Positions 1 through 57,440 of a DNA stretch of 64,000 nucleotides are shown piece after piece. The notes beneath the pieces were generated by a model, which saw only the letters and a program-made list of their open reading frames with translations, was not told the origin of the DNA and ran no database searches. The position numbers and the translations under genes were made by a program. Each line of letters opens with the position of its first letter. The stretch's first letter is position 1. Location of the stretch: assembly GCA_028122735.1 (NCBI GenBank), contig JAOHSR010000003.1:10543-74542 (forward strand), read 5' to 3'. This DNA is from Flavobacteriales bacterium (GTDB taxonomy: Bacteria; Bacteroidota; Bacteroidia; Flavobacteriales; BACL11).

Positions 1-135
1 TTTTATTGAAAGAGTGGAGCTTTTAAATGCATTTTTAGGAACAAAAGTACTGTCTTTTGTTTGGGCTAAAGCGCTAAAGCTTGTAATGCTAAAAGCAAAT
101 ACTATGCAAAAAATTAGTTTAAAGCCCCCGCTCAT
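1..135 (-). CDS. 5' part of a secreted/outer-membrane protein, runs off the left edge (not in ORF track)
   Basis: ATG at 135-133, 3 nt after the GH3 stop; 45 open codons MSGGFKLIFCIVFAFSITSFSALAQTKDSTFVPK...; Sec signal peptide ending ALA-Q. Confidence 0.75.
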   Translation of the reverse strand, partial: MSGGFKLIFCIVFAFSITSFSALAQTKDSTFVPKNAFKSSTLSIK

Positions 136-138
136 ATT

Positions 139-2445
139 TTATTTTAGATTAAAAGTGGCCTGAAGATTTTCTATATAAAAAGAGTGTTTGCCAGGCTCAT
201 TTATCCAAAGATTATCATAATTGTAGAATCCAAGCTCATCAAAAGTTACTTTAAAAGAAACTGTTTTTGTCTCCCCAGTTTCCAGCTCCACTTTGTTGTA
301 GCGAACAAGTTTTCTTAGAGGAGGTGAAATCGATGCAAAGTGATCACGAGCATAAAGCTGGACAACCTCTTTTCCAGCTCTTTTTCCTGTGTTTTTAATA
401 TCTACACTAATAGTTATTTCCTTTTCTGAAAGTAGATAATCATTTTTTTCAATATTAATATTGGAGTATTCAAAACTTGTATAGCTTAAGCCAAAACCAA
501 AATTATACTGAGGGTTAAAAAAGTCATTTTTCCAAGTATTTGCGTTTATAAGCTCAGATTGTTTGTGGTCATAGTGCATAATAACGCCGCTATGTCTTGG
601 GTAGGTATAGGGTAGTTTTCCGCTAGGATTTGTTTTTCCAAACAAAATATCTGCAAAAGCCTGCCCCCCCTGATCTCCAGGTAGATAACACTGAACAACG
701 GCATCAGCTAAAGGCTCAATAGCTGAAATAATTTTAGGTCTACCCTCAACAAGAGCAAGAACAATTTTAATTCCCGTTTTAGAGAGCTTCTTAATTATTT
801 CTTGCTGCTCTTTTGCCATGTCAAGAGCATAGATATCCCCAGGTCTTTCAGTTGATGGCAGCTCTCCAAGACAAACAACAGCAACATCATAGTTGCTGGC
901 ATTTTTAACAGCTGTTGCAAGGTCAGAAGAATAAAAATCAGCCTCATCACCATTTACCATTTTCATGGTAGACCCCTCAAAGTGATCACATGATTGAGCG
1001 TTGTTTTTTACTGCCTGGTAAATAGTTGGGTTTTTAGTGTTGTTATATTGCGGGTCAACTCCTTGCCAGGTGTGTGTCCACGCTCCATTTAAACAATTTA
1101 GGCTGTTAGCTGTTGGACCAATAACCATGATTCTTGAGCTCGTACTTAGAGGTAGTAATTGTTCTTTGTTTTTTAGTAGTGTAATTGATTCTGTGGCCGC
1201 CGCATATGCCTTTTTAGCATGAGATTCAGATCCGAAATCGGGATAATCATTTTTATTTGTATATGGGGTGTTAAATAAATTAAGCTTATGTTTTACTCGC
1301 AATATTCTTCTTACAGCATCGTCCAGCCTTTCTGTTTTTACCCTTCTATCATTAATAAGTTCTAGAAACAGTTTGCAGTAGTTTTTATATTCGGGGTTGT
1401 TAGGAACCATACTCATATCAACACCGGCATTTATTGCCGTGGCAATAGCATCTTTTAAAGTTGAGTCTGTTTGAGCTACCTTATAAAGGTTGATAAAATC
1501 TTCCCAATCTGAAACTGAGAACCCTGCAAAACCCCAATCCTCTTTTAAAACATCAGTTAACAGGTGTTTGTTTGCGTGTCCAGGAATTCCATTTACCTCA
1601 CCACTATTTACCATTACAGTAAGGGCCCCACTTTTTATTGCGTTTTCAAAAGGAGGGAGGTGGTACTCTTTCATTGTTCTCTCAGGAATAAGAGCAGGCG
1701 TTCTATCTCTTCCTGTTCTTGGGAAGCCGTAACCAACATAATGTTTCAGACAAGCCGCAACATGATCTTTATCAACATTACCTTCTCCTTGATATCCCTG
1801 CACAATTTTTGTTCCTAAAGTTTTTGCCAAATAAGTGTCTTCGCCAAGTGTCTCAAAAAATCTAGACCAAATAGGAACCCTTCCTAAATCTAAAACCGGA
1901 GAGAAGTTCCAGGGCACCCCAGAAGCCCTTGTTTCATAAGCAGTAACCCTTCCCATTTCTCTTGCCATAGCCGTATCCCAGCTTGCAGCTAGTCCAATTT
2001 CTTGAGGAAAAAGCGTGCTGTTTTGAATGTATGTTGCCCCATGAATTGCATCTACGCCATAAATAATAGGAATTTTTAGACCCGAATTTGTGGCCTTTTC
2101 CTGAATGGTTTTTATTATTAGATTCCAATTTTCAAGAGTGAAAGTGTGATTTGAAACATTTAAAATAGAGCCAACTTTATAAATATCGATGGCCTCTTCA
2201 AGTTTTTTAAGATCAATTTGATGAGGCTCAATTAAAACATTTTCAGCATCTTTTTGTAGTATGGCATCTAAGGTTATTTGACATGTTTGACCAACCTTTT
2301 CTTCAACGGACATTTTTTTAATTAGAGCATCAATTTCTTTTTCAGCTACAGGATCAAGCTCAAATGAGCTTGTGCTTTTATTGTTATCACAAGAAAAGAG
2401 AAAAAGAACAAAAAGTAATAAAGTAAATACTGAATTTGTTTTCAT
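139..2445 (-). CDS. GH3 beta-glucosidase (BglX-like), lipoprotein
   Basis: Lipobox LFSC; GH3 motifs GVDAIHG, FSPVLD, KHYVG, nucleophile SDW; C-terminal PSGKLP and FN3-like EVVQLY. Confidence 0.93.
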   Translation of the reverse strand: MKTNSVFTLLLFVLFLFSCDNNKSTSSFELDPVAEKEIDALIKKMSVEEKVGQTCQITLDAILQKDAENVLIEPHQIDLKKLEEAIDIYKVGSILNVSNHTFTLENWNLIIKTIQEKATNSGLKIPIIYGVDAIHGATYIQNSTLFPQEIGLAASWDTAMAREMGRVTAYETRASGVPWNFSPVLDLGRVPIWSRFFETLGEDTYLAKTLGTKIVQGYQGEGNVDKDHVAACLKHYVGYGFPRTGRDRTPALIPERTMKEYHLPPFENAIKSGALTVMVNSGEVNGIPGHANKHLLTDVLKEDWGFAGFSVSDWEDFINLYKVAQTDSTLKDAIATAINAGVDMSMVPNNPEYKNYCKLFLELINDRRVKTERLDDAVRRILRVKHKLNLFNTPYTNKNDYPDFGSESHAKKAYAAATESITLLKNKEQLLPLSTSSRIMVIGPTANSLNCLNGAWTHTWQGVDPQYNNTKNPTIYQAVKNNAQSCDHFEGSTMKMVNGDEADFYSSDLATAVKNASNYDVAVVCLGELPSTERPGDIYALDMAKEQQEIIKKLSKTGIKIVLALVEGRPKIISAIEPLADAVVQCYLPGDQGGQAFADILFGKTNPSGKLPYTYPRHSGVIMHYDHKQSELINANTWKNDFFNPQYNFGFGLSYTSFEYSNINIEKNDYLLSEKEITISVDIKNTGKRAGKEVVQLYARDHFASISPPLRKLVRYNKVELETGETKTVSFKVTFDELGFYNYDNLWINEPGKHSFYIENLQATFNLK

Positions 2446-2449
2446 ATAA

Positions 2450-3919
2450 TTATTTTATAAGTAAAAGTTTTTCTGAATAGAATTTGTTTTCTGAATAGTA
2501 CGAGCAATTATAAATACCAGCAGGAAGGTGTAGAATGTTTATTGTTTTGCCTTCTAGTTTGTCTTTTTTAAAAACAACTTTTCCAAGTAGTGTTGTTATT
2601 TTGAGGTTTTTAGTATTATTTGCAGAAAGACTAATAAGCCCACTGCTCGGGTTTGGATACAAGCTATTCCCCAAGCTAGACAGCTCATTTACATCAGAGA
2701 TGATAATAGAATTACATGTTGGGGTGCATTGCCCCCACTTTGGACAGATAACCTTGTTTTCGTCAATAACAATCGTTCTGTTTGTATATTGAGTGTTTCC
2801 GTTTGTACAAGCCCATGCTGGGTCTAATGACTCGGCAATAGACCAATTGTCAGCACTAAATTTTAGTTCGTAATAACCCTCTAGCATTGTAATTTGTTTT
2901 TCCCAAATACCATCCCCATCTAAATCTTCCATTGGCCAACAACTTCCACACCAGGTGTTAAAAGTTCCATTAACCTCAGGGGTAGTAAAAGATTGAGAGA
3001 CATCATTCATGTCAACTCTAAAGGTTACAAGATACTCACAGCTTCCATTAGCAATTGTTGCAGAGGAGTTATAGTTTGTTGCTTGAGGATCTTTACACCC
3101 AAGAATTCCAGTATTTTCATATACCCTTACATAATCTACTTCAATTTGAGAGGGAAAAGATGTTAGTGAGTTTGGACCGTTATCAGTAACTGCAAGATTT
3201 AAGATTAAGTACCAATCATTAGAATTAAAAGGCCAAGAATGTTGGTTTGGAATTGTTGGATAGCTTGAGGGAGAGAGCTGATAAACCTTAACGCCATCAA
3301 TAAACCAAGCAATATAGTTTTCGTCCCACTCTACTGCATAATTGTGAAAGCTAGAAGCAAAACTTCCTGTTTGTATTTGGTGTTGAAATGACTGATAAAA
3401 AGATTGTCCCGGACATGAGCCCACGTGGGCAGCACCTGTAGTTTCTACGGTAGGCCAGTCATTTGCCCACTGCTCCATAATATCAATCTCGCCATCACAT
3501 GGCCAAGAACCACCAGAGGGCAGCATCCAAAATGCAGGCCAAAACCCTTCGCCATTTACGGTTTTCATTCTTGCCTCAATCTTACCATACCTTACTTCAA
3601 ACTTATTTTCAGTCTTGATTTTTGAAGAGCTATAGTACATGGTATTTCCCCAACTATCAACTATACCACCCGGCTCTTCTTTAACAATAATTTTTAGTGT
3701 TCCATTGCTCACTTCAGCATTACCAGCTTGATAAAATTGCAGCTCTCCATTTCCCCAGCCCCACAGACCGTATTGACTTCCTGTTCCAAGATCATGTGTC
3801 CATTTTGTTTGATCTAAAGTAGTTCCAGAAAAATCATCTTCCCAAACTAAAGACCAGCCTTGTGAGTAAGAGGTGTTACAAAAGCAAATTAAAAACGTAG
3901 CGATTAATAAATTTTTCAT
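2450..3919 (-). CDS. GH16 endo-beta-1,3-glucanase (laminarinase type) with Cys-rich repeat, CBM-like module and T9SS type A CTD
   Basis: Signal peptide; GWGNGELQ, WPAFWML, catalytic EIDIME; GCKDPQATNY repeat; VTFRVDM...WCGSC module; YPNPS...LLGK CTD. Confidence 0.92.
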   Translation of the reverse strand: MKNLLIATFLICFCNTSYSQGWSLVWEDDFSGTTLDQTKWTHDLGTGSQYGLWGWGNGELQFYQAGNAEVSNGTLKIIVKEEPGGIVDSWGNTMYYSSSKIKTENKFEVRYGKIEARMKTVNGEGFWPAFWMLPSGGSWPCDGEIDIMEQWANDWPTVETTGAAHVGSCPGQSFYQSFQHQIQTGSFASSFHNYAVEWDENYIAWFIDGVKVYQLSPSSYPTIPNQHSWPFNSNDWYLILNLAVTDNGPNSLTSFPSQIEVDYVRVYENTGILGCKDPQATNYNSSATIANGSCEYLVTFRVDMNDVSQSFTTPEVNGTFNTWCGSCWPMEDLDGDGIWEKQITMLEGYYELKFSADNWSIAESLDPAWACTNGNTQYTNRTIVIDENKVICPKWGQCTPTCNSIIISDVNELSSLGNSLYPNPSSGLISLSANNTKNLKITTLLGKVVFKKDKLEGKTINILHLPAGIYNCSYYSENKFYSEKLLLIK

Positions 3920-3923
3920 CTAT

Positions 3924-6809
3924 CTAGTTTTGAATGGTGATTTTTTTACTAACAACTTCATTTCCAATATATACTGAAATATAATAAAGACCATTTTCTT
4001 TAATATTTAAAGCGTGTTTGTTTTTGTTCGTTTTGTTCACTTTTGAATAAACAAGCTTTCCTAAAACACTGTAAACATCAATTCTAGAGGTTTCTTGTGG
4101 GGTATTTATGTTTATTAGTCCTGATGAAGGGTTTGGATAAACAAAAACACTATTTAAATTGTTTTCTGAGACCCCTGTCTGTCCTTGACACTCCACACAG
4201 CTATTCCAACAAACAGCGTCTAGCTCAATCTCCGAATCAATAACTAAATATCGGTTAACAAAACCCCATCCATTAGGAGCGCCTGGGTCAAATGCAACAG
4301 TAACACAGCTTGCTGTAGAGTCAAGATCTTCTTGAATATTCCAGCCATCAGCAGAGAACTTATACTCTACCGTGTCTCCAGCAGAAAGAAGCGCTGTGAA
4401 CTCCCAAACATTATCTCCATTGTCATCTGTCATTGCCCAACAACTTCCGCACCAGCTATTAAAAGTTCCGTTTACCTCTGGAGTTGTAAAAGGAGGACCA
4501 ACATACTCAGACATGTCTAACCTGAACGTCACATTATATGAAGAAGGTCCAGAGCTTGACAAACAATCCTCACACGATTGCCAGCAAACAGGTTCTAAAA
4601 TTGTATCTTGATTTACATGTAGTATTCTATTTGTAAAACCATTACTTGACACTGTACAGCTGTCTCCCGAAAAAAGATTCTCTTCAATTGTCCAGTTGTC
4701 TACAGAGTATTTATACTCATAAGAGCCGGAATCTATTAAGATAGTTATTTCCCATATGGAATCGTTGTTTAGGTCCTCAAGTTGCGTACAGTTTCCACAC
4801 CAACCATTAAACATTCCGTTTAACTCGGGAGTAATATATGTAATATTTGTAACTCCTCTTAGATCTAGCTGAAAAGTAACGCTATAGCCATAGACACAAG
4901 TACTGTCATCGCAAGTTGCCAATGGGTCATAGTTATTTGCTAGAGTATCAGTGCATCCATAACTAGTTAAACAGCTTCCGTCATCACAATTTGCAATAGG
5001 GTCAAAATTACACGCCATAGTGTCTGTACATCCGAAATTGTTTAAACAACTTCCGTCATCACAAGTCGCTAAAGAATCATAATTACAAGCAAGAATGTCC
5101 GTACAACCATAAATTGTTAAACAGCTTCCGTCGTCACAAGTTGCAAAAGGATCAAAATTACAGGCTAGAGAATCGGTACAGCCGTAGATCGTTAAGCAGC
5201 TTCCATCATCACAAGTTGCTAAAGCGTCATAATTACAAGCAAGAACATCCATACACCCATAATAACAATATACACAGGAGCTGTCATCTATAGTTGCGAG
5301 GGGATTATAGTTTAGGGCAGTAGAGTCTGTACACCCATAGGTTACTTGAGGGAAGACACAAGAGTCTGGGCAATTAGCCAAAGAGTCATAGTTAAGAGCT
5401 GCCGGATTCATACAGCCATAAATTGTTAAACAGTTTCCATCATCGCAGGTAGCTAGCGGATCAAAATTACAGGCTAAAGAATCTGTACAGCCATAAAGCG
5501 TTAAACAGCTTCCGTCATCACACGTAGCTAGCGGATCAAAATTACAGGCTAGTGAATCGGTACATCCATAAGATGTCAGGCAACTTCCATCATCAAAAGT
5601 TGCTAAAGTATCAAAATTACAAGCAAGAGAGTCTGTACACCCAAGAGTACAGTCGTTACAAGAGCCGTAAGTGTCGCTACTTATATATTCAGGTACAATA
5701 GTGATTAATCTGTTAGCATATGTAGAATAGTCTGTAATAGGGGCGCAAGTACCGCCGGCTTGCATATCATCTACCAAATCTTCCTGATAAGTCCAGCTGT
5801 CTAAAGCGTATTTGTATTCAAAGTCACCAATGGGTAAATCAAGAGTTATGGAATATATTCCATCCCCATCAGGGTCAGACAATATTACACAGCCACCACA
5901 CCAGTTAAAATTAGGGCTTTCCAAATTAACTTCCGAAAAAGAGGTTGTATCGCAATTCATATTAACATTAAATGTTGTGCTATATAGGCAGCTTCCATCA
6001 TCAATTGTGGCAAGAGAATCATAATTTGCAGCAAGTGTATCCGTACATCCATTTACACCAGTAATAACACAGTTATTCCATGAAGAGGAAAATGTTGTGT
6101 CACTATTTACAATAGCAGCTCGATTAACAAAGCCCCAACCATTAGGAGCCCCCGGGTCATAGTTAATTGTGATGCAAGATAGAGAAGAATCAAGGTCTTC
6201 TTGAATAGTCCAGTTATCAGCAGAATATTTCCATTCTAAAGAATCTCCAGGACCAAAAGATGTTGAGAATTGCCAAACACTGTCTCCATCAGCATCAGTC
6301 ATTGGCCAGCAATTACCACACCAACTGTTAAAACCTCCATTCACTTCTGGTGTTGTGTAAGGATCTGTAACTCCTCTCATATCAACCTCAAAAGTTACAC
6401 TATAAGAAGAGGGCCCTGAACTACAGCTACTGCATGAGCCCCAACAAACAACAGGAAGAGTTGTATCTCCACTAATAGTTAAAACTCTGTTGGTGTATTG
6501 AGTGTTTCCGTTTGTACAGCTATCACCAGAATATAAAGATTCTTGTATAGTCCAGTTGTCAGCAGAGTATTTAAACTCGTAAGTTCCATTAGCTAAATCT
6601 ATAGTAACATCCCAAATATTATCACCATCAAGGTCTGACATTGCAGCACAGTTTCCACACCAACCATTAAAAGTTCCGTTTACTTCAGGGGTGGTAAATG
6701 TTGTTGGGTCAACATCACTCATGTCAACTTGAAAGGTTACATTGTTTTGAGCTATTGTGCTAAAGCAAAAAAGAAACAACGTCAATAGATGTGCTAAAAT
6801 ATTTTTCAT
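3924..6809 (-). CDS. T9SS-secreted multi-module protein (5 CBM-like WCGxC modules, Cys-rich GCTD repeat array); no catalytic domain recognised
   Basis: Signal peptide; five (V/T)TFx(V/L)(D/N)(M/L)...WCGxC...DxDGD...E(Y/F/W)K modules; tandem GCTDxxACNxDxxAxxDDGSC repeats; VYPNPS...VLGK...KKITIQ CTD. Confidence 0.85.
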   Translation of the reverse strand: MKNILAHLLTLFLFCFSTIAQNNVTFQVDMSDVDPTTFTTPEVNGTFNGWCGNCAAMSDLDGDNIWDVTIDLANGTYEFKYSADNWTIQESLYSGDSCTNGNTQYTNRVLTISGDTTLPVVCWGSCSSCSSGPSSYSVTFEVDMRGVTDPYTTPEVNGGFNSWCGNCWPMTDADGDSVWQFSTSFGPGDSLEWKYSADNWTIQEDLDSSLSCITINYDPGAPNGWGFVNRAAIVNSDTTFSSSWNNCVITGVNGCTDTLAANYDSLATIDDGSCLYSTTFNVNMNCDTTSFSEVNLESPNFNWCGGCVILSDPDGDGIYSITLDLPIGDFEYKYALDSWTYQEDLVDDMQAGGTCAPITDYSTYANRLITIVPEYISSDTYGSCNDCTLGCTDSLACNFDTLATFDDGSCLTSYGCTDSLACNFDPLATCDDGSCLTLYGCTDSLACNFDPLATCDDGNCLTIYGCMNPAALNYDSLANCPDSCVFPQVTYGCTDSTALNYNPLATIDDSSCVYCYYGCMDVLACNYDALATCDDGSCLTIYGCTDSLACNFDPFATCDDGSCLTIYGCTDILACNYDSLATCDDGSCLNNFGCTDTMACNFDPIANCDDGSCLTSYGCTDTLANNYDPLATCDDSTCVYGYSVTFQLDLRGVTNITYITPELNGMFNGWCGNCTQLEDLNNDSIWEITILIDSGSYEYKYSVDNWTIEENLFSGDSCTVSSNGFTNRILHVNQDTILEPVCWQSCEDCLSSSGPSSYNVTFRLDMSEYVGPPFTTPEVNGTFNSWCGSCWAMTDDNGDNVWEFTALLSAGDTVEYKFSADGWNIQEDLDSTASCVTVAFDPGAPNGWGFVNRYLVIDSEIELDAVCWNSCVECQGQTGVSENNLNSVFVYPNPSSGLININTPQETSRIDVYSVLGKLVYSKVNKTNKNKHALNIKENGLYYISVYIGNEVVSKKITIQN
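4890..5642 (-). repeat. Ten tandem coding repeats of about 75 bp (25-aa GCTDxLACN(F/Y)DxLATCDDGSCLTxY)
   Basis: Read directly in the translation: 10 units of 23-27 aa totalling 251 aa. Confidence 0.92.
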
Positions 6810-6831
6810 GTTTAGGGTGTTTTAGTTTTTG

Positions 6832-6881
6832 TAAAGATACAAAATTTACTTAGTGTATTTTAGCCCTTTATTACAAACACT
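6832..6881 (-). promoter_or_regulatory. Putative promoter of the 961-aa/GH16/GH3 operon with two operator half-sites
   Basis: TATCTTTA (variant of the Bacteroidota -7 TAnnTTTG) at 6839-6832; AGTGTA at 6852 and AACACT at 6876-6881; TTACTTAGTG shared with 12994-13003. Confidence 0.45.
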
Positions 6882-6886
6882 TACAT

Positions 6887-6922
6887 AAAAAAAGGCCTTA
6901 AAGTTAATTAAGGCCTTTTTTT
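6887..6922. terminator. Intrinsic terminator after the 2002-aa gene
   Basis: Perfect inverted repeat AAAAAAAGGCCTTAA-agttaa-TTAAGGCCTTTTTTT with U-tracts on both strands. Confidence 0.9.
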
Positions 6923-6938
6923 AATTATTTAAAAGATA

Positions 6939-9900
6939 CTATTGAAGAACTATCTTTTTGTTTACAACACCATTATTTGTTGTAATTTCTAAGAAGTAAA
7001 CCCCTTTAGTGTATTTAGACATGTTTATCGATTTAGTGTACTCTCCAACAAACTGCTCAAGGCCTTCGGAGTAAACCAACTCTCCAACCATATTCAATAC
7101 TCTTACTTCTAAGTTTTGAATATCTTCAGACACAAAAGAAACATTAAAGATGCCGTTAGAAGGGTTTGGATAAACCTCTAGATCATTAATTTGACTTCCC
7201 CCATCTAATCTAATTGGAACAACACCAGGTTGTGTCCAGGTAATTGGACTTGTCCAATCTGATCGGTAAGATGTTACGTTTACATCACAGAACGTTCTTC
7301 CTTGAGCTCTATATTCAGTTCCAGATTGAAGTCCAAACTTATTTACAGAATATGTAGGGTAGAACACTCCAAATCCACCAGCAGTCTGCCAGTTAGAACC
7401 TACAGTATTTACTCTTAGGGCTACTCTAGCAAAAGTATAAGGGCCGGTTTCTGTCCATGTGAATCTTGCCTTAGAATCATTAGAGCTAAACGTTTCAACC
7501 ATTAGCGTATCCATCTCTGGACAAGCATCTTGAGTTGTGAATTGATCTGAATATGAATATCCTGATTCACCACCTCCACAATAAAAGGCTTTCATTTTGA
7601 ATTCGTAAGTTGTTGAAGCCATAAGACCTCTTAGTACCTTAGAAGTGTTAGGCAGTCCAACATTGCATAGTCCAGACCCAATACCAGCAGCTTTAGTTGT
7701 CCACGTAAGAGTTCCTACCTCACGATATCTTACAAAGTATTTTTCAACTCTACAGCTTCCACTGTTAGCATCATTCCAGTGAATAGTTGCCATCTCAGCA
7801 TAAACATCACTTGAGTTTAATCCAATTGGATATGGTGCCGAACAGTTGTATCCATATAAGCATGAACCATCGTCTACCATTGCAGAATCGTTGTAGTTAA
7901 ATGCTAAAGAATCTGTACAACCTTGAACACATTCAGAGCAAGAGCTATAAGTATTATCAAATATAGGGCTTGAATTAACCACTTGTTCAACAACTGAAAC
8001 ATTATCTATTGAGCCTATTGCAGAGTCTAATGGTTGAATTCTAAATCTCTTATCATTTGCTGCCGTGATGTATTCCGAATAGACACCCGCAGCGCTTCTT
8101 TCAATACCAGTTACGCCTCCTATTTTTGCCCTATACGATCCTTTTGAAATATTCACAACTTCGTAAGTAACTAAAAAAGTTGTATTAGCTATACCAATAA
8201 CACTTGCTTGGCTTATAGTATTATCTGTTGTGCCAAGCGAAATTGCTACGCCATTTTGTATGGTCCAGTTAGCACCATTAGACCATCCAGTATTCCCATT
8301 AGAAAAACTTCCATTAGTAATAAGTTCACCTGAATTTGCAATAAGTCCATTAACATCAACAAGTCTGTTGGCATATGTTGCGTAATCAGTTATTGGAGCA
8401 CAAGAAGCGCCGCCAACCATATCGTCAATTAAGTCTTCTTGGCCAGCCCATCCATCAACAGCATACTTGTATTCAAAGTTTCCAGCAGGCAGATCAACAG
8501 TTACAGAGTGAACCCCATCACCATCAGGATCAGTCATTGGAACACAGCCACCACACCAGCCAAATACAGGACTTTCTAAGTGAACATACCCAAATGAACC
8601 AGCAGGCTCACAATTCATATCTACATTAAATGTAGTTGAGAATAAACACGAACCGTCATCATCTGTTGCAAGAGCATCATAGTTTATTGCGCCAGCATCA
8701 GTACATCCATTTACTTGGTCACAAATATCACAAGATCCATACGTATCATCCAATACAGTTCCAGCTGAAACATCCACTAATCTATTAGCATAAGAGAAGT
8801 AGTCAGTTACAGGAGCACAAGAAGCTCCGTTCTGCATATCATCAACTAGATCTTCTTGACCAGCCCATGAATCTACAGCATACTTGTATTCAAAATTACC
8901 AAGTGGTAGGTCAACAGTTACAGAGTGAACCCCATCACCATCAGGATCAGTCATTGGCACACAACCACCACACCAGCCAAATACTGGGCTTTCAAGATGA
9001 ACATATCCAAATGAGCCAGCAGGCTCACAATTCATATCAACATTGAATGTGGTAGCGTAAACACAAGACCCATCATCTAAGTCTGCTAAAGGATCAAAAT
9101 TAGAAGCAGCCGGATCAGTACATCCAGGAGGGCATACACTACATCTTCCATAAACATCAGAAGTAGTCGAGTTGGCAGCCGCTTGTCTGTATGCATATGA
9201 TAAATTATCCGTATATGGAGCACACGTGTTAGTTCCATTTAACATTTCGTTAAATAGGCCAGCGAATTCAGAATCCGCCCAAACATCAACAACGTACATG
9301 TATACAAAGTTATCAGTAACACTGTGAGTTCCTTCCCACACTCCATCACCGTCAGCATCAGTTAATAGGTATGTATTACCTGACCAGTTGTCTAAGAATC
9401 CTGTTGCAGCTAATGTTGTAGGAGTTAAGCCTGAACAAGTCATGTCTACTGTAAAGGTAACATCATACTCACAAGAACCATCATCTGTAGTCATTGTTGA
9501 GTCATAATTATTTGCTAGAGGATCTGTACAGCCAGCAATACATGCAATACACGATCCGTAAGTGTCAGAAGTATTGATTCCAGGAGTTGCTGTTACTAAT
9601 CTATTTGCATATGAGAAGTAATCGGTTACTGGAGCACAAGTTTCTCCACTTACCATATCATCAACCAAGTCTTCTCTTGAAGAATTGTTGTCAATTGAGT
9701 AGAAGTAAACAAAGTCTCCACCAGGAATATCAACAGTAACTGAATAAATACCATCCATTTCTGGATCTGACATTTGAGTACAGCCTGTAAAGCATCCAAA
9801 ATAAGCGCTTTCTAAATGTACTGTAGAGTAAGTTGTTGGGTCTTCACAATTCATATCTACATTAAATGTAGCTGTAAATAGACAAGAACCATCATCTGTT

Positions 9901-12900
9901 GTTGCTGTTGCGTCATAATTATTTGCAAGCGGATCAGTACATCCCAATATACAAGCATCACAAGAGCCGTAAGTATCAGTAATTGAAACTCCAGCAGCCA
10001 CAGCTATTAGTCTATTTGCATAAGAGAAGTAATCTGTAACCGGGGCACAAGAAGCGCCGGCAACCATATCGTCAATCAGGTTTTCTTGACCAGCCCATGA
10101 ATCAACAGCATACTTATATTCAAAATTACCAAGATCTAAATCAACAGTAACAGACCAAACGCCATCTCCATCAGCATCAGTCATTGGAACGCATCCACCA
10201 CACCATCCAAACTCTGGGCTTTCAAGGTGTACATATCCAAATGAACCAGCAGGCTCACAGTTCATATCAACAGTAAATGTTGTAGCATATAAACAAGAGC
10301 CGTCATCAACTACAGCTGTTGAGTCGTAGTTTGAAGCTAAAGGATCAGTACAACCAGGAGGAAGACTATAAAATGAAGTTAAATCAATAGCCATATCAGA
10401 TGTATAGCTAGTACCGGCTATCCCCTCAATTCTTAAGTCAATTTCACCAGTAAATGCACCAAGATCTATAATTGATTGGTTCCATACATTTCCTAAGTCA
10501 CCTGAGGCAGTCCAAACATTTGTCCATGTTGCTCCGTTATCTGATGAAACATCAACGTTTAAAGTCCCCATAGTAGCGCCATACATGTGGTAAGCAAAAG
10601 AGAACCCTGGATTAGCAAAAGCATCCATATCTACACAAGGAACAGTTATTCTTGCAGAAGCGCCCCATGTTGAGGATGGAGATGTTTCTGTATACAAATA
10701 AGTAGAGCTATCAAAGGCAGCAGTTGGCCCTGTATTAGAAGAGCCTGTAGGCCCAACTTTACTAGTCCAATTAAAATCATCATCAGTATCTTGAAACCAC
10801 ATTTCTAAACCTGTTTCAAAACTTGAAGTCGAGTCAGTGTCTATACAAGGATATGTACAACTTCCATCATCAGCTTGTGCCAATGGGTTGTAATCAATAG
10901 AGAGTATGTCTGTACAACCTGTTATTACAGGAAGACATAATGTGTCGCTATAAGGAGCTCCTCCTGAAAGAATGGTCACACCAGCAGAATTTGCTAGAGT
11001 CCAACTTACCTCACCTAACCAAGTTCCACCACTACAAGTTACTGGGTAGCAGAGATCTTGTAAACAAACTGTTACACTGGAAGAAGAACCAGAAGATAGA
11101 GAATAAGAATTTCCCGCAATTGTAAAGTTAGTTCCACTCCAACCATCACCATAAGAGTCCATCATTGTAAGAGTGTATGAATTAGAGCAAGAGCCATCAT
11201 CTATAGTGGCTAGAGCATCGTAATTACACGCAGTAGGATCCATGCATCCAACGATTACAGGAAGGCATAAAGAGCCAGTGTAAGGTGCACCTCCAGAAAG
11301 GATAACAACTCCATTAGCGTTTGCTAAAGTCCAGCTTACTTCGTATCCATAAGAACCTCCCCCACAAGTTACCGTATAGCAAGAGATGTCATCAGCTAAG
11401 CAAAGTATATCAGTACCTAAAGCACCAGAAGAAAGAGTTGATGAAGAGATTAGTGTTCCATTAGCATCAGTAACATCAAAAGTATTTCCATTCCAACTAT
11501 CTCCATATGAATCTATCATAGTTAAAGTATATGAAGGGTCACCGCATGAACCGTCGTCAACAGTTGCTGAAGGGTCGTATCCACATAACATTGGGTCTGT
11601 ACATCCAAAAATAACAGGAACACAGTGATTACCTGTATATGTGCCAGCTCCAGAAACAATAACTGTGCCAACAGCATCCACTAAACTCCAACTAATTTCA
11701 CTAGCCCATGTACCCCCTCCAACTACAATGTCGTAACATGCATCAGGAAGGCAAAGTACTTCTGTTCCACTTGATCCGCTTGGTAACGTAGATGAAGAAA
11801 TTACGGTTCCATTAACATCAACAACATCAAAAGTATTTCCACTCCAACCATCTCCATAAGAATCATTCATTGTTAATGTGTATGCAGCGTCACCACACGA
11901 GCCGTCATCAACAGTTGCTAGTGGGTCATATCCGCATAACATTGGGTCTGTACACCCATAAACCTCAGGAACACAGTGATTACCCGTATATGTGCCGCCT
12001 CCAGAGACAATAACAGTTCCAAGCCCATCCACTAAACTCCAACTAATTTCACTAGCCCATGTACCCCCTCCAACTACAATGTCGTAACATGCATCAGGAA
12101 GGCAAAGTACTTCTGTTCCACTTGATCCGCTTGGTAACGTAGATGAAGAAATTACAGTTCCATTAACATCAACAACATCAAAAGTATTTCCACTCCAACC
12201 ATCTCCATAAGAATCGTTCATTGTTAGCGTGTATATTCCATCAGCACTACATGTTCCGTCGTCGTATATTGCAAGAGGATCGTAATTGCAGGCTAAAGGA
12301 TTCACACATCCACAACCATAATCATGAGTACCAACATAGGTCCACGTGTCTTTAGCGTAAACAAGCCATTCTGAGCTTAAAGAATCTGTACCAGCTGATG
12401 CTGTCCAGTCGTCATTACCACTGTGTACTGAACATTTTCTGACTAAAGTGTGGTCCTTTGTAGCACTTGTTACTCCAGCAACATCCCATCCAGCACCAGG
12501 ATCACCATCCCAATTCCCATACCAATCTAAGACGGTATAACCTCCTGTTACGGGGTCCGTAGGGCTTGTTGGTTCTGAACCATATACTAGTGCAAAACCA
12601 TCATCACCGTTACTTAAATAAGTAAATGTTTCATCTGCTTCTGCTAAAATTGAAGCGTCTGAAGAAGGATGAGCTACAACATATACATCATAAGGCAAGA
12701 TTACCGCTCCAGCATCAAAATCGTTCCAATATTCATAAACACCAACAGTTGTTGGGTCATTAGATACATTAGGATAAGCATACATAGAAAGGTCAACAGT
12801 ATCTGCTGTTGGGTTATAGATCTCAAAATACTTGTGATTTGAGCTTCCCTCAGCCCATTCTGAGAAAAATATATTTGTCTGAGCGTTCGCAAAACTGAAC

Positions 12901-12947
12901 ACAAAAGACAATAAGTTTATAACTAAAATATTAGTAAAATTTTTCAT
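6939..12947 (-). CDS. Giant T9SS-secreted surface protein: lamin-tail domain, 4 DSYGD(G/S)W modules, MAM domain, 5 CBM-like modules, GCTD repeats, FN3-like domains, type A CTD
   Basis: LTD-like IFFSEWAEGSSNHKYFEIYN; MAM-like TGPTAA...FAYHMYGATMGTL...DMAID; FN3-like YFVRYRE...TYEFKM; VYPNPSNG...GVYF...KKIVLQ CTD. Confidence 0.85.
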   Translation of the reverse strand: MKNFTNILVINLLSFVFSFANAQTNIFFSEWAEGSSNHKYFEIYNPTADTVDLSMYAYPNVSNDPTTVGVYEYWNDFDAGAVILPYDVYVVAHPSSDASILAEADETFTYLSNGDDGFALVYGSEPTSPTDPVTGGYTVLDWYGNWDGDPGAGWDVAGVTSATKDHTLVRKCSVHSGNDDWTASAGTDSLSSEWLVYAKDTWTYVGTHDYGCGCVNPLACNYDPLAIYDDGTCSADGIYTLTMNDSYGDGWSGNTFDVVDVNGTVISSSTLPSGSSGTEVLCLPDACYDIVVGGGTWASEISWSLVDGLGTVIVSGGGTYTGNHCVPEVYGCTDPMLCGYDPLATVDDGSCGDAAYTLTMNDSYGDGWSGNTFDVVDVNGTVISSSTLPSGSSGTEVLCLPDACYDIVVGGGTWASEISWSLVDAVGTVIVSGAGTYTGNHCVPVIFGCTDPMLCGYDPSATVDDGSCGDPSYTLTMIDSYGDSWNGNTFDVTDANGTLISSSTLSSGALGTDILCLADDISCYTVTCGGGSYGYEVSWTLANANGVVILSGGAPYTGSLCLPVIVGCMDPTACNYDALATIDDGSCSNSYTLTMMDSYGDGWSGTNFTIAGNSYSLSSGSSSSVTVCLQDLCYPVTCSGGTWLGEVSWTLANSAGVTILSGGAPYSDTLCLPVITGCTDILSIDYNPLAQADDGSCTYPCIDTDSTSSFETGLEMWFQDTDDDFNWTSKVGPTGSSNTGPTAAFDSSTYLYTETSPSSTWGASARITVPCVDMDAFANPGFSFAYHMYGATMGTLNVDVSSDNGATWTNVWTASGDLGNVWNQSIIDLGAFTGEIDLRIEGIAGTSYTSDMAIDLTSFYSLPPGCTDPLASNYDSTAVVDDGSCLYATTFTVDMNCEPAGSFGYVHLESPEFGWCGGCVPMTDADGDGVWSVTVDLDLGNFEYKYAVDSWAGQENLIDDMVAGASCAPVTDYFSYANRLIAVAAGVSITDTYGSCDACILGCTDPLANNYDATATTDDGSCLFTATFNVDMNCEDPTTYSTVHLESAYFGCFTGCTQMSDPEMDGIYSVTVDIPGGDFVYFYSIDNNSSREDLVDDMVSGETCAPVTDYFSYANRLVTATPGINTSDTYGSCIACIAGCTDPLANNYDSTMTTDDGSCEYDVTFTVDMTCSGLTPTTLAATGFLDNWSGNTYLLTDADGDGVWEGTHSVTDNFVYMYVVDVWADSEFAGLFNEMLNGTNTCAPYTDNLSYAYRQAAANSTTSDVYGRCSVCPPGCTDPAASNFDPLADLDDGSCVYATTFNVDMNCEPAGSFGYVHLESPVFGWCGGCVPMTDPDGDGVHSVTVDLPLGNFEYKYAVDSWAGQEDLVDDMQNGASCAPVTDYFSYANRLVDVSAGTVLDDTYGSCDICDQVNGCTDAGAINYDALATDDDGSCLFSTTFNVDMNCEPAGSFGYVHLESPVFGWCGGCVPMTDPDGDGVHSVTVDLPAGNFEYKYAVDGWAGQEDLIDDMVGGASCAPITDYATYANRLVDVNGLIANSGELITNGSFSNGNTGWSNGANWTIQNGVAISLGTTDNTISQASVIGIANTTFLVTYEVVNISKGSYRAKIGGVTGIERSAAGVYSEYITAANDKRFRIQPLDSAIGSIDNVSVVEQVVNSSPIFDNTYSSCSECVQGCTDSLAFNYNDSAMVDDGSCLYGYNCSAPYPIGLNSSDVYAEMATIHWNDANSGSCRVEKYFVRYREVGTLTWTTKAAGIGSGLCNVGLPNTSKVLRGLMASTTYEFKMKAFYCGGGESGYSYSDQFTTQDACPEMDTLMVETFSSNDSKARFTWTETGPYTFARVALRVNTVGSNWQTAGGFGVFYPTYSVNKFGLQSGTEYRAQGRTFCDVNVTSYRSDWTSPITWTQPGVVPIRLDGGSQINDLEVYPNPSNGIFNVSFVSEDIQNLEVRVLNMVGELVYSEGLEQFVGEYTKSINMSKYTKGVYFLEITTNNGVVNKKIVLQ
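8360..9060 (-). repeat. Close intragenic copies of the WCGGC module (period 417 bp; further copy near 10010-10290)
   Basis: FNVDMNCEPAGSFGYVHLESPVFGWCGGCVPMTDPDGDGVHSVTVDLP is identical in two copies; ccatcaggatcagtcattgg at 8521 and 8938. Confidence 0.88.
11539..12233 (-). repeat. Recent 351-bp tandem duplication (117-aa DSYGDGW module)
   Basis: 11677-11864 and 12028-12215 differ at only one base by eye; constant offset of 351. Confidence 0.9.
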
Positions 12948-12999
12948 AATAATTTGTTTTTTGTTTTTGAAGCACTAAATGTAGTAAAAAATCTTACTT

Positions 13000-13016
13000 A
13001 GTGAACAATATACACT
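13000..13016. promoter_or_regulatory. Palindromic operator candidate upstream of the 2002-aa gene
   Basis: AGTGAACAATATACACT, one mismatch to AGTGT-N7-ACACT; 16 nt upstream of the -7-like TACATTTA (12983-12976). Confidence 0.6.
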
Positions 13017-13166
13017 TGCCAATTTTACTAGAGTAGTTGATTTGTAAATAGATTTTTATTAAATTTTGTAAACAAAAACTCATCAAATTCTATTTGAAAA
13101 ACTAAAAGAGATAAAAGCTTAAATGGTTTTGTATAATTATAAATAAAAAATTGTTATATTTTAACT

Positions 13167-13249: not shown

Positions 13250-14290
13250 TTAACCATTTAAAAAATTGACTGTTTTTTGTTTTTCATTTAATTTAAGAGT
13301 GTCCATATGAACAATTAGATCTAATATTTTGTTTGAATACCCCCATTCATTATCATACCAGCTTACAACTTTGAAAAATTTAGAATTTAATTCAATACCT
13401 GCTTTTGAGTCAAAAATAGATGTTCTACTATCAGACATAAAATCTGTTGAAACAAGATCTTCGTCTGTATATCCTAATATTCCATTGTATCTTTCAGATT
13501 TTGAGGCCTCATGCATAACGCGACAAATTTCTGCATACGATGTTTCAGATTTAAGATTTACCGTTAGATCAACCACTGAAACATTTGCAGTAGGAACTCT
13601 ATAGGCCATTCCGGTCAATTTACCCTCCATTGATGGAAGAACTTTCCCAACAGCTTTGGCAGCACCAGTTGAGGCAGGGATAATATTTTGATAAGCCCCT
13701 CTACCTGCGCGCCAATCTTTTAAGGATGGACTATCTACTGTTTTTTGTGTTGCTGTTGCCGCGTGAACCGTTGACATAATACCGCTTTCAACTCCAAATT
13801 TTCTGTCTAGTATTTCAACAATAGGAGCTAAACAATTTGTCGTGCAAGAAGCGTTTGATACGATATTCATTTCTTTAGTATATTTTTCGTGATTAACACC
13901 CATAACAAACATTGGGGTTTCATCTTTTGAAGGAGCAGAAAGGATAACCTTTTTAGCACCGGCATCTAAGTGTTTTTGTGCCAAATCAGAGGTTAAAAAT
14001 AAACCAGTAGCTTCGATTACATATTCTGCGTTTACTTCACTCCATTTTAATTTTGAAGGGGCTTTTTCACTTGATATTCTGATTTTATGTCCCCCAACAT
14101 ATAAATGTTCTTTGTCGTGTGAAATCTCTAAATCTAATCTGCCATGGCTCGAATCGTATTTTAGCATGTACGCCAAATAATCTACAGGATATAAATCATT
14201 AATAGCAACAACATTCATATCAGCTCTTTTTAAGATGTTTCTGAAAGCAAGCCTTCCAATTCTACCAAAACCGTTTATAGCGATGTTCAT
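13250..14290 (-). CDS. gap: Type I glyceraldehyde-3-phosphate dehydrogenase
   Basis: [26 protein letters not shown]. Confidence 0.98.
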
Positions 14291-14310
14291 AATTTAAAAA
14301 TTTAATACCA

Positions 14311-14334
14311 CAAAGTTAGTGTAATTTAAACACT
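14311..14334 (-). promoter_or_regulatory. gap promoter -7 element with abutting operator
   Basis: TAACTTTG at 14318-14311 shares one base with the palindrome AGTGTAATTTAAACACT (14318-14334). Confidence 0.7.
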
Positions 14335-14364
14335 TACAGCTTATTTCTTATTTTTTTTACTTAA

Positions 14365-14388
14365 GGTGTACAAAATACACTATGTTTG
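14365..14388 (+). promoter_or_regulatory. Sugar-kinase promoter -7 element with abutting operator
   Basis: GGTGTACAAAATACACT (14365-14381) shares its last base with TATGTTTG (14381-14388). Confidence 0.7.
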
Positions 14389-14406
14389 TTATTAAATTTT
14401 TTTAAA

Positions 14407-15246
14407 ATGATATTAATTGCAGATAGTGGATCGACAAAGTGTAGCTGGGCAATATGTGTTAATGGCCAGATAATTGATAGGTGTAGTACAATTGGATTCA
14501 ACCCTTATTTTATTTCCTCTAAACAGGTTGCTATCAATCTTCAAAAATCTGATCTTGACGATATAAGAGATCAAATTTCAAAGGTATATTTTTATGGGGC
14601 AGGATGTTCTTCTTCTAAAATGAATAAGATAATTGAAACTCCATTTTGTGATTTTTTTAAAAATGCTGAGATAAACATACATCATGACTTAGACGCTGCT
14701 TGCTATTCAATGTATGATGGAGAGCCAGCAATTACTGGTATATTAGGAACGGGATCTAACTCATGTCTCTTTGATGGCACAACAATTTACGAGAGTGCCC
14801 CTTCTTTAGGCTTTATGCTTGGAGATGAGGCTTCCGGAAACTATTTTGGAAAGAAATTACTGAACCTCTATTTTAATAATATACTATCAAAGGATCTTAA
14901 GAAAAAGTATGAGAATAATTATGAAACCGATATAGCAAATATTAATTCTAACGTATATAATAATTCAAGAGCAAATGTCTATTTAGCTAAATTTTTTCCA
15001 TTTGTTTCAGAAAATAAGAATCACGAGCAAATGCAAGAGTTGATAAAAACATCTCTAGATGAATTTTTTAGACTTCACATATGTTGTTTTCCAAATCATA
15101 AAGAAGTGAAAATTAATTTTATCGGTTCAGTTGCGTTTTTTCTTCAAGAAGAGATTAAAGCGGTTGCTTTATCTTACAATTGCAAAATAGGAGAGATTGT
15201 TAAAAACCCTATAGATAAGTTAATAGAATATCACTTCAAAAAATAA
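14407..15246 (+). CDS. BadF/BadG-type sugar kinase (N-acetylglucosamine kinase family; possible glucokinase)
   Basis: ILIADSGSTK, FYGAGC, ILGTGSNS, LGDEASG; ATG at 14407 preferred because the TTG at 14386 lies inside the promoter. Confidence 0.88.
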   Translation: MILIADSGSTKCSWAICVNGQIIDRCSTIGFNPYFISSKQVAINLQKSDLDDIRDQISKVYFYGAGCSSSKMNKIIETPFCDFFKNAEINIHHDLDAACYSMYDGEPAITGILGTGSNSCLFDGTTIYESAPSLGFMLGDEASGNYFGKKLLNLYFNNILSKDLKKKYENNYETDIANINSNVYNNSRANVYLAKFFPFVSENKNHEQMQELIKTSLDEFFRLHICCFPNHKEVKINFIGSVAFFLQEEIKAVALSYNCKIGEIVKNPIDKLIEYHFKK

Positions 15247-44929: not shown

Positions 44930-45870
44930 GACGAATAATTATAATATTTGTTGTGTGTCTCTCTCAATTACATGCACAAGATCCCCATTTCTCTCAATTT
45001 AATACGGCTAAGCTGAATCTTAATCCCGCATTATTTTCATTTATATCTAGTGATTATCAAACTCTTTTACATAGAAAATCTCAATGGAGTTCGGTTGCTG
45101 ATCCATTTAAAACATTAGCAATTTCTTTTTATGCAAAAGAGTATTATAAGCAGCTATCGTTTGGTTTTAATTTTATTCATGATGAATCTGGACCTTCAAG
45201 TTTTAATACTACGGGAATAAATACATCTATTTCAAAAATTATTATTAATAAATCTAATTCACTTATATCGGTTGGCACATTAATTGGAGCCTATCAAAGA
45301 TCTATTGATTACTCCTCAATTATTTTTTTAGAGGAAGAGCAATTATTTAATGATAATTTGTTTTTTTTAGATTTTGCCGTAGGAAGTGTTCTTTCACAAA
45401 AAATTAATAATAAAACTATGCTTGAATGTGGACTCTCATCCTATCACTTAAATCAATCACAACAGTCTTTCAACAGTAATGTAGAATCTAAGATGCCAGT
45501 TAAGTTTAATACATATTTAATAAGTTCACATAAACTAAGCTCGGATTTTTTATTAAATACTCTTATTTTTTATTCTGTTCAGCAAAATATAAGCGAGTTA
45601 CTATATGGAATAGATTTATTGTCACCAATTGACAATAAGTTTTTAGACGAAATTTTGGTTGGGCTTGTAATTAGAGATAATGATGCTGTTATACCAAAAA
45701 TTGGATTTGTTTTTGAAAAATTTAATATGCTTTTAAGTTATGATATTAATATTTCAAAATTATCTAAAGCATCAAATAACTTTGGTGGTTTAGAATTTTC
45801 ATTAATATATTCTTGGAATAAGAATAAATCTGTTTTAGAAAAAAAATATTTATGTCCAAAATACTTATAG
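44926..45870 (+). CDS. PorP/SprF-family T9SS outer-membrane protein
   Basis: AQDPHFSQF...LNPA, R-SQW, SYD, GGLEFSL; directly follows a type B cargo gene. Confidence 0.88.
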   Translation: MRRIIIIFVVCLSQLHAQDPHFSQFNTAKLNLNPALFSFISSDYQTLLHRKSQWSSVADPFKTLAISFYAKEYYKQLSFGFNFIHDESGPSSFNTTGINTSISKIIINKSNSLISVGTLIGAYQRSIDYSSIIFLEEEQLFNDNLFFLDFAVGSVLSQKINNKTMLECGLSSYHLNQSQQSFNSNVESKMPVKFNTYLISSHKLSSDFLLNTLIFYSVQQNISELLYGIDLLSPIDNKFLDEILVGLVIRDNDAVIPKIGFVFEKFNMLLSYDINISKLSKASNNFGGLEFSLIYSWNKNKSVLEKKYLCPKYL

Positions 45871-57436: not shown

Positions 57437-57440
57437 ATTC

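Follow-up and report, generated by a model that had tools for sequence, protein, structure and literature searches.

A candidate laminarin locus of marine Flavobacteriales with secreted multivalent CBM48-like proteins and a barrel/lipoprotein cassette in the place of SusC/SusD

How might a marine bacterium capture and import laminarin when the gene pair that normally marks this capacity is missing? Laminarin ranks with the most abundant glycans of the sea, and its bacterial turnover is usually followed via the prediction of polysaccharide utilization loci (PULs) centered on susC/susD and via SusC/D expression. The question is raised by a stretch of 64,000 nucleotides (G000:C23:10543-74542, hereafter the window) from a metagenome-assembled genome (MAG) of a Flavobacteriales bacterium (1.03 Mb in 54 contigs; GC ~30-40%; completeness 58.7%, contamination 0.02%). 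Four genes at the left end of the window encode two large secreted proteins (p2002 and p961), a glycoside hydrolase of family 16 (GH16) and a family 3 enzyme (GH3). We conclude, with a probability of roughly two in three, that these genes form the upstream half, facing the substrate, of a laminarin locus of 11 genes that is independent of SusC/SusD and belongs to uncultured marine Flavobacteriales with small genomes.

Open reading frames (ORFs) together with Pfam and NCBIfam searches bear out what an original prediction, made from the DNA alone, had read here: four co-oriented genes for proteins of 2002 and 961 amino acids (aa), a GH16 and a lipoprotein GH3, with no catalytic family in either of the two large proteins. 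The GH16 enzyme consists of a catalytic domain (aa 20-270; PF00722, 4.5e-22; ExDxxE-type motif EIDIME in the translation), one copy of a Cys-rich repeat that we call GCTD, one CBM48-like module (aa 295-412, nucleotides 2684-3037) and a type-A C-terminal domain (CTD; aa 420-489) of the type IX secretion system (T9SS). Its nearest solved relatives are laminarinases (4dfs, 6.9e-49; 3azx, 1.4e-48), the top matches all being laminarinases or endo-beta-1,3-glucanases by name, and we take its subfamily to be GH16_3-like. The GH3 enzyme matches PF00933 in its N-terminal part (3.3e-63), PF01915 in its C-terminal part (3.4e-44) and an Fn3-like domain (4.2e-17), as well as the NCBIfam models for BglX (3.4e-138) and exo-beta-1,3/1,6-glucosidase (3.6e-124), both under their equivalog cut-offs; by reading of the translation its signal is of the lipobox type (…LFLFSC). 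The order of hydrolysis first proposed, GH16 and then GH3, is judged likely in a locus that is of beta-glucan type and built on T9SS substrates.

The four genes are transcribed leftward; their downstream side is the left edge of the window. Only 4 bases separate p961 from GH16 and 4 separate GH16 from GH3; all genes after p961 are packed in this way, including the co-oriented genes downstream of GH3, with neighbors 3-4 bases apart or overlapping by 1 base. The gap between p2002 and p961 measures 129 bases and holds a terminator-like hairpin (Table 1), and a second hairpin is located after the glyceraldehyde-3-phosphate dehydrogenase (GAPDH) gene upstream of p2002. Therefore p2002 is probably a transcription unit of its own with its own promoter, read-through being possible, and p961 is the head gene of the tightly packed operon. 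A scan for sigma-70 promoters returned 49 sites versus 48.5 expected, which is uninformative, as expected for Bacteroidota.

Position 1 of the window is reached 138 bases past the GH3 stop, and the contig extends 10.5 kb beyond it. The original prediction had cautioned that the operon continues past this edge and that susC and susD could lie there. The continuation proved real, and the suspected pair is not part of it: the 10.5 kb to the left of the window hold no susC or susD. Found instead are two predicted outer-membrane barrel proteins (bar658 and bar570), two lipoproteins (lip330 and lip413), a T9SS protein with a possible carbohydrate-binding module (CBM), an enzyme of family GH158 and a regulator (Table 1). 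The GH158 protein matches solved members of its family (9oro, 2.5e-87, over residues 28-364 of 372; 6pal, 4.6e-53), and its translation reads as lacking a lipobox. A comparison of lip413 with solved structures gave 0 matches. The locus contains three hydrolases of beta-1,3-glucan type (GH16, GH3 and GH158) and four T9SS substrates.

Table 1. Coordinates of the locus genes and of features within p2002, p961 and the gap between them. "Window" counts from the first base of the window; "L003" is G000:C23:1-11000.
Feature	Frame	Coordinates	Strand	Description
p2002	Window	6939..12947	-	2002 aa; T9SS protein without catalytic domain
p961	Window	3924..6809	-	961 aa; T9SS protein without catalytic domain
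GH16	Window	2450..3919	-	489 aa; endo-beta-1,3-glucanase, laminarinase-like
GH3	Window	139..2445	-	768 aa; exo-beta-glucosidase, lipoprotein-type signal
bar658	L003	8701-10677	-	658 aa; no Pfam family
bar570	L003	6989-8701	-	570 aa; weak OMP_b-brl match
lip330	L003	5993-6985	-	330-aa lipoprotein
lip413	L003	4748-5989	-	413-aa lipoprotein; two CBM30-like stretches (4.2e-17)
T9SS CBM4_9-like protein	L003	3396-4742	-	448 aa; weak CBM_4_9 match, type-A CTD
GH158	L003	2278-3396	-	372 aa; endo-beta-1,3-glucanase
NrtR/AraR-like regulator	L003	1426-2106	-	downstream of GH158
Terminator-like palindromic hairpin	Window	6886..6923		16 pairs, T runs on both sides; in the p2002/p961 gap
Four 'DSYGDGW' modules of p2002	Window	10857..12242	-	~95 aa each, aa 236-697, alternating with GCTD repeats
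MAM domain of p2002	Window	10377..10823	-	aa 709-857; PF00629 2.4e-19; PDB 5oj2 3.6e-17
Modules A1-A5 of p2002	Window	8313..10292	-	aa 886-1545; one GCTD repeat before each
Type-A T9SS CTD of p2002	Window	6942..7175	-	PF18962 4.1e-16; TIGR04183 44.7 bits versus cut-off 23
Central GCTD array of p961	Window	4896..5639	-	ten repeats, 25 aa each, aa 391-638

The absence of SusC/SusD noted in the original prediction extends from the locus to the MAG and to 66 of the 68 genomes sampled from the same GTDB family (0.8-2.1 Mb, 16 genera, 21 of them high-quality). Within the MAG, PF07980 has 0 matches and none of the six matches to TIGR04056 exceeds the cut-off. Across the family, PF07980 and PF14322 each occur in the same 2/68 genomes and in 0/21 of the high-quality ones, and a genome of this genus that is 100% complete carries the same locus without SusD families. 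A canonical Bacteroidota PUL is recognized by adjacent susC and susD, and in this sense the locus is not one; the slot of the pair is taken by a conserved cassette, in which two barrels are combined with two lipoproteins and behind which come the T9SS CBM protein and GH158. In an order-level sample of 301 genomes, in which the barrel profile and SusD were counted for each family, the two distributions are largely complementary. The barrel and SusD occur, respectively, in 17/42 and 1/42 genomes of family f1, in 16/21 and 3/21 of f9, in 10/17 and 1/17 of f15, in 1/16 and 2/16 of f8, in 9/41 and 35/41 of f16, in 0/42 and 42/42 of f4, in 0/41 and 40/41 of f7, and in 0/41 and 0/41 of f17. Family f16 includes genomes of 2-4 Mb with SusD and cassette side by side in one genome.

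Around genes of the bar658 family, 40 loci were collected from five Flavobacteriales families (f1, f8, f9, f15 and f16). Counts of these loci overstate independence, because closely related genomes, and in part duplicate contigs of a single genome, contribute more than one of them. The genes for bar658, bar570, lip330 and lip413 are all present, in that order, in 38/40 loci, and GH158 is likewise present in 38/40, the exceptions in both cases being cut by contig ends. GH16 and/or GH3 accompany the cassette in 31/40 loci, and in most genera outside g1 a Na+/solute symporter is encoded between the two. A paralogous five-gene cassette (bar658', which is ~39% identical, bar570', lip330', lip413' and a GH158-like gene) was seen at L033-L039, for example at L035:216-17835. 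Its neighbors are three to four sulfatases, T9SS proteins and a formylglycine-generating enzyme, which suggests a sulfated glycan as the substrate of the same barrel system there.

A word index returned 169 homologues of bar658, all nameless or 'hypothetical protein', and an exhaustive search of 1.84 billion representatives with its profile gave 278 matches at E <= 1e-3. OMP_b-brl matches 6/43 diverse family members, a comparison of the profile with solved structures gave nothing under E 0.5, and no model in NCBIfam release 20 matches bar658, its relative P0299 (see below) or the other cassette proteins (a match of 0.029 to a monalysin-type model being due to chance). A structural model built from 20 close homologues was discarded (predicted local distance difference test, pLDDT, 51); one built from a 43-row alignment that included distant members (pLDDT 83.9, predicted template modeling score 0.80) forms a beta-barrel from residue 49 to 658. 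Foldseek matched this model to generic barrels only (TM 0.2-0.4), so that the fold by itself would not name a specific family. A full structural scan matched it to many barrels at Z 10-15, and 22-strand TonB-dependent transporters gave the longest alignments (370-415 residues, root-mean-square deviation, rmsd, 4.3-4.8), SusC BT1762 among them (Z 13.5, 415 residues aligned, rmsd 4.8). The model leaves no room for an N-terminal plug.

The two barrels are distant paralogs (hhalign 98.2%, E 5.4e-14), and structure prediction supports binding of the smaller one to a lipoprotein of the cassette. The predicted complex of bar570 and lip330 scored 0.68, with 0.47 for the best of 3 controls, and passes a mark that is attained by 116/157 solved complexes and by 2/215 mismatched pairs. 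Its runs agree in 100% of contacts, with a partner pLDDT of at least 83, and the predicted interface comprises lip330 residues 20-33, a conserved 'EGPxLNDL' stretch right after the lipidated Cys.

A relative with a named counterpart is P0299 (749 aa), which the bar658 profile matches at 6.4e-46 and which aligns with the bar658 family over 582 columns (hhalign probability 100, E 1.4e-98). The 90%-identity cluster of P0299 holds NCBI MGN6645131.1, 'CHU_1276 family cellulose-binding protein [Cytophaga sp.]', and by way of this name bar658 can be assigned to the CHU_1276 family. A search with P0299 in a phylum sample of 401 genomes gave matches in 2 genomes, none of them a close relative.

The type-A CTD (Por_Secre_tail/TIGR04183) exceeds the cut-off on p2002, p961, GH16 and the 448-aa CBM protein, with TIGR04183 scores of 44.7, 39.6 and 38.6 bits (cut-off 23) for the three proteins in the window, which thus qualify as predicted type-A cargo of the T9SS, as first proposed. 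With regard to the secretion machinery itself, GldM is over the cut-off in the MAG, and the window encodes PorP/SprF and a protein with a PorZ N-terminal domain; PorU is not over the cut-off in the MAG, which at 58.7% completeness is not read as absence. Further items of this kind lie at window positions 41240-47258 and 54893-62746: a DUF7948/PKD protein of 1229 aa, which has a CHU_C type-B tail and after which PorP/SprF is encoded, a Sortilin/BNR-like protein that ends in a Por_Secre_tail, a TonB-dependent receptor (57441-59777) and the PorZ-like gene.

What the three exported window proteins share is a repeated module. A motif scan and an alignment delimit 11 copies of ~110-120 aa with pairwise identities of 24-83%, which fall into two subtypes (A1-A5 with B3; B1, B2, B4 and B5 with C1). 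A profile of the module finds exactly 5 domains in p2002, 5 in p961 and 1 in GH16 (i-Evalues 1e-37 to 3e-55), the very count originally given, and 2 more in a fourth ORF that is cut by a contig end outside the window (G000:C2:25627-26505). Each module is preceded by the GCTD unit of 20-25 aa, whose presence in all three proteins had also been recognized before; there are 11 copies in p2002, 11 in p961 (ten of them in a central array) and 1 in GH16. p961 is built of three modules, the ten tandem GCTD repeats, two further modules and the CTD, and its Pfam matches are solely of the X25/AMPK1_CBM/CBM_48/CBM_20 type plus Por_Secre_tail. In the DNA its array shows as a tandem repeat of 75 bp (4939-5643, x 9.3); the protein has a Cys content of 7.0%, and the array is a probable disulfide-stapled stalk or spacer.

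The domain order of p2002 is more varied: a signal peptide, an LTD-like stretch that scores under the Pfam cut-off, four 'DSYGDGW' modules, a MAM domain, five CBM48-like modules, a segment of ~110 aa, two FN3 domains and the CTD. Pfam matches include MAM (2.4e-19), CBM_48 (3.9e-16), X25 (8.3e-16), AMPK1_CBM, fn3 and Por_Secre_tail (4.1e-16); matches to the PDB are confined to the MAM region, and the 'DSYGDGW' modules have no Pfam or PDB match. Two near-identical 'DSYGDGW' plus GCTD units are encoded by a 351-bp tandem repeat (x 2.3, 90% matches) at 11440-12234, which may be a recent duplication or a repeat assembly that needs verification. The ~110-aa segment ('ELITNGSFSNGNTGWSNG…IDNVSVVEQ'; aa ~1548-1660, window 7980-8310) stands after the fifth module and before the usual Cys-rich end of the module; by eye it resembles a CBM_4_9/galactose-binding-like insert, and it has no Pfam match at E <= 0.01.

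The original prediction had described the module as beta-sandwich-like. The repeat is there as described, and its fold can now be refined to the CBM48/CBM20 type: CBM_48 matches it with 59.6 and 50.3 bits (cut-off 22.4) and AMPK1_CBM with 57.9 bits (cut-off 26.8), and among solved structures its profile finds the CBM48 of SEX4 first (7.3e-5), followed by an alpha-amylase CBM and pullulanase. From these matches the module is best described as a divergent member of this starch-binding fold with added Cys pairs. Of 8000 candidates that were scored, 2287 proteins match its profile at E <= 1e-5, and the 120 best are long, multi-module and nearly all T9SS-tailed proteins in records named 'Bacteroidota/Flavobacteriales bacterium'. 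Module-bearing ORFs are found in 19/31 fetched loci that have GH16 and/or GH3 and in 0/9 loci that have neither. Across the 68 family genomes, module and barrel occur together in 25, the barrel only in 6, the module only in 7 and neither in 30. From its context, namely GH16 fusion, synteny and missing GH13, the module would be expected to target beta-1,3-glucan and not alpha-glucan.

We propose the following route for this locus. After export by the T9SS, p2002 and p961 would display 10 CBM48-like modules on the cell surface or close to it, with disulfide-stapled GCTD repeats as spacers, for the multivalent capture of laminarin. The GH16 enzyme, exported in the same manner and targeted by its own module, would cleave the captured glucan to oligosaccharides, which lip330 and lip413, as surface lipoproteins, would pass on together with the T9SS CBM4_9-like protein to the bar658/bar570 barrels that replace SusC. 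GH158 and the GH3 lipoprotein would complete hydrolysis to glucose, which would be imported by the Na+/solute symporter (inside the locus in most other genera), and the NrtR/AraR-like regulator would control the locus. The 'glucan net' that p2002 and p961 may form, as suggested at the outset, is plausible. The accompanying idea that GH16 docks on p961 was dropped, as no dockerin- or cohesin-like element was seen; the module copy in GH16 itself suggests that each of these proteins may bind the substrate rather than the others. Metatranscriptome contigs from four runs (three studies) map to all four window genes. These are assembled contigs and not reads; X15 and X18 cover 29/30 bins, X17 consists of five difference-free pieces on GH3, p961 and p2002, and parts without cover, such as bins 12585-13068 in X15 and X16, are uninformative.

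Several other explanations have to be weighed. The one that survives best, which we consider unlikely, holds that p2002 and perhaps p961 are chiefly T9SS adhesins for phytoplankton or particles, whose modules bind an algal surface glycan and capture laminarin only incidentally. Such a role would fit the LTD-like, MAM and FN3 domains and the four 'DSYGDGW' modules that stand alongside the CBM-like modules of p2002, and it would fit two related proteins: a T9SS protein of 1747 aa elsewhere in the MAG that contains FN3 and three MAM domains (G000:C2:8996-14236), and a protein of 2176 aa from family f9 that is related to the N-terminal part of p2002 (3e-239), directly precedes the cassette and has no CBM48-like module (L076:2363-8890). 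It fits p961 poorly, however, since this protein has nothing but modules, GCTD repeats and CTD and heads a hydrolase operon, and the laminarinase carries the same module fused to it; moreover, adhesion and glucan capture are mutually compatible. Contig C2 carries both the gene for the 1747-aa protein and the fourth module ORF, with an RND efflux operon between them and no carbohydrate-active enzyme in view.

Somewhat less likely still, p2002 and p961 could be binders of alpha-glucans (starch, glycogen or floridean starch) that merely lie beside a beta-glucan operon. GH13 (PF00128), however, is missing from the MAG and from 66/68 family genomes, including all 21 high-quality ones, and the catalytic Pfams among 120 listed module proteins of middle size (268-856 aa; 130 matches among 150 candidates) are GH16 (PF00722) in 20, GH3 in 1 and GH13 in 0. 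The operon's own GH16 bears the module, just 4 bases part p961 from GH16, and module ORFs adjoin GH16/GH3 loci in five families. These observations have to be set against the fact that CBM_48, AMPK1_CBM and X25 are over their gathering cut-offs on both large proteins, that the best solved relatives of the module are the starch-type ones given above, and that a terminator-like hairpin parts p2002 from the operon. The two Trp residues in the 'NGW' and 'DxW' motifs hardly vary across the modules, and we take them to be the sugar-stacking positions of AMPK-beta/CBM48. An automatic IMG label, '1,4-alpha-glucan branching enzyme', which many module-family proteins carry, also speaks for alpha-glucan and is probably wrong. 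The two family genomes with GH13 hold it on the same contigs as the family's only SusD genes (G036:C23 and G038:C44), where SusD beside GH13 resembles a canonical alpha-glucan PUL; with contamination of 4-6% in both genomes, these contigs may be foreign DNA or the result of transfer.

Finally, it is very improbable that the oligosaccharides enter through a canonical SusC/SusD pair encoded in the 41% of the genome missing from the assembly and that the barrels serve otherwise, for example in polysaccharide export like DUF6029/Wzi-like proteins: the completeness of 58.7%, six TonB-dependent-receptor-like ORFs in the MAG, the TonB-dependent receptor at window 57441-59777 and the DUF6029-like language-model features of bar570 (rank 16, score 0.97; DUF6029 is tied by HHpred to Wzi-type barrels in the available part of PMC9603273) would leave room for it, but SusD is found in 0/21 high-quality family genomes, including the complete same-genus genome that has the locus, barrels and lipoproteins share an operon with the hydrolases (GH158, GH16, GH3) in 38/40 loci, and C. 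hutchinsonii depends on homologues of the barrel for the uptake side of its cellulose use according to the available text of PMC12016534.

Other points weigh against the laminarin locus as we propose it. Sequence comparison places the module in the alpha-glucan-binding CBM48/CBM20 group, and we know of no member of this group that binds beta-1,3-glucan. LTD-like, MAM and FN3 domains are typical of adhesins, and the target of p2002 may be algal surfaces or particles and not dissolved laminarin. In 12/31 loci with GH16/GH3 no module ORF is present in the fetched stretch, and GH16 is without the module in most genera; therefore the binders are accessory to the cassette. The genomes compared are kin and not independent samples, and the MAG is 58.7% complete. 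The complex score of bar570 and lip330 exceeds its controls by +0.21 where +0.20 is required, and the control that reached 0.47 paired lip330 with an unrelated chain. The link to CHU_1276 is based on the name within a 90% cluster and not on C. hutchinsonii CHU_1276 itself, and the likeness to CHU_1277-1279 is one of gene kinds and order. The RNA contigs show presence in RNA libraries only, where DNA carry-over and multi-mapping of repeats are possible. Binding, transport and localization, wherever given for a component of the locus, are predictions.

The upstream flank of p2002 (window 13250-15246) contains the GAPDH gene, on the minus strand and directly adjacent, and a plus-strand ORF of 286 aa that has no Pfam match at 1e-5 and by eye resembles sugar kinases of the BadF/N-acetylglucosamine-kinase type. 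GAPDH adjoins the locus in several other families too (L030, L078, L079, L085, L090 and L091).

Should abundant Flavobacteriales with small genomes take up laminarin by way of a CHU_1276-type cassette that T9SS-displayed CBM arrays feed, part of the laminarin consumers would be invisible to current annotation. The cellulose system of Cytophaga, which is poorly understood, would gain a much broader and more tractable context, with a soluble substrate and many homologues, and the starch-binding fold may gain a new specificity. One large survey, as far as its available text tells, says of its automated prediction that loci lacking a susC/D pair were left out of account (PMC6794258). More tentatively, and with the odds somewhat against both parts being true together, the CHU_1276-type cassette could be a general SusD-free and, as the barrel model shows no plug, probably TonB-independent glycan importer that replaces SusCD in several streamlined pelagic families of Flavobacteriales for at least two substrate classes (laminarin and the substrate of the sulfatase-rich paralogous locus), and the Cys-stapled module, arrayed on T9SS proteins, could represent a new CBM family that binds beta-1,3-glucan and arose from the starch-binding fold. 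The two together would then offer laminarin, one of the ocean's largest carbon fluxes, a multivalent way of capture and import that PUL surveys based on susC/susD systematically miss.

The comparison with known systems can be drawn at three levels. The module resembles CBM48/CBM20 domains (SEX4, AMPK beta, pullulanase X25) in its Pfam matches, its profile match to SEX4 and its conserved Trp, and differs from them by its conserved Cys pairs and C-terminal 'GSCxxC' stretch, by being always flanked by GCTD, and by its fusion to GH16 and never to GH13 (among the 120 listed proteins) in a host lineage without GH13.

Canonical PULs are typically regulated by hybrid two-component systems or SusR, and the regulator of the present locus is instead NrtR/AraR-like. 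In the available part of a recent report a new regulator type, BguR, is described (10.64898/2026.01.10.698779). Canonical laminarin PULs combine SusC/SusD with GH16, GH3, GH17/GH30 or GH158 (PMC7157763, PMC6794258). The locus is like them in its set of GH16_3-like, GH3 and GH158 enzymes, in its predicted substrate, in the surface binding proteins that adjoin the transporter and in being one regulated operon. Unlike them it has no plugged TonB-dependent SusC and no SusD, its enzymes and binders are predicted T9SS substrates and not only lipoproteins, and its GH158 is without a lipobox.

Our literature search, which left supplements aside, found no description of the cassette or the module in marine laminarin loci. 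The closest likeness is to the chu_1276-1280 cluster, which according to the available text of PMC12016534 is required experimentally for cellulose use, was proposed to be an atypical PUL without SGBP-A/SusD (SGBP, surface glycan-binding protein) and was found in only two close cellulolytic relatives. CHU_1278 and CHU_1279 are described there as bimodular beta-sandwich/CBM-like proteins, the latter essential, and chu_1280 as an endoglucanase (PMC12016534). As far as that account goes, both clusters appear, by the kinds of their genes, to share the order of a barrel, a second outer-membrane protein, a beta-sandwich protein, a bimodular CBM-like surface protein and an endoglucanase; lip413, with its two CBM30-like stretches, is bimodular as CHU_1279 is said to be. 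Neither cluster has a SusD-like partner, and both organisms rely on the T9SS. They differ in that the substrate is predicted to be a soluble beta-1,3-glucan here and is crystalline cellulose there, in that the endoglucanase here is a GH158 with GH16 and GH3 added, and in the hosts, which are here pelagic marine Flavobacteriales with genomes of 1-2 Mb. Large T9SS proteins with CBM48-like modules precede the cassette here and are not reported for the Cytophaga cluster in the available text. We regard the locus as a CHU_1276-type, Sus-independent system that appears to be adapted to laminarin.

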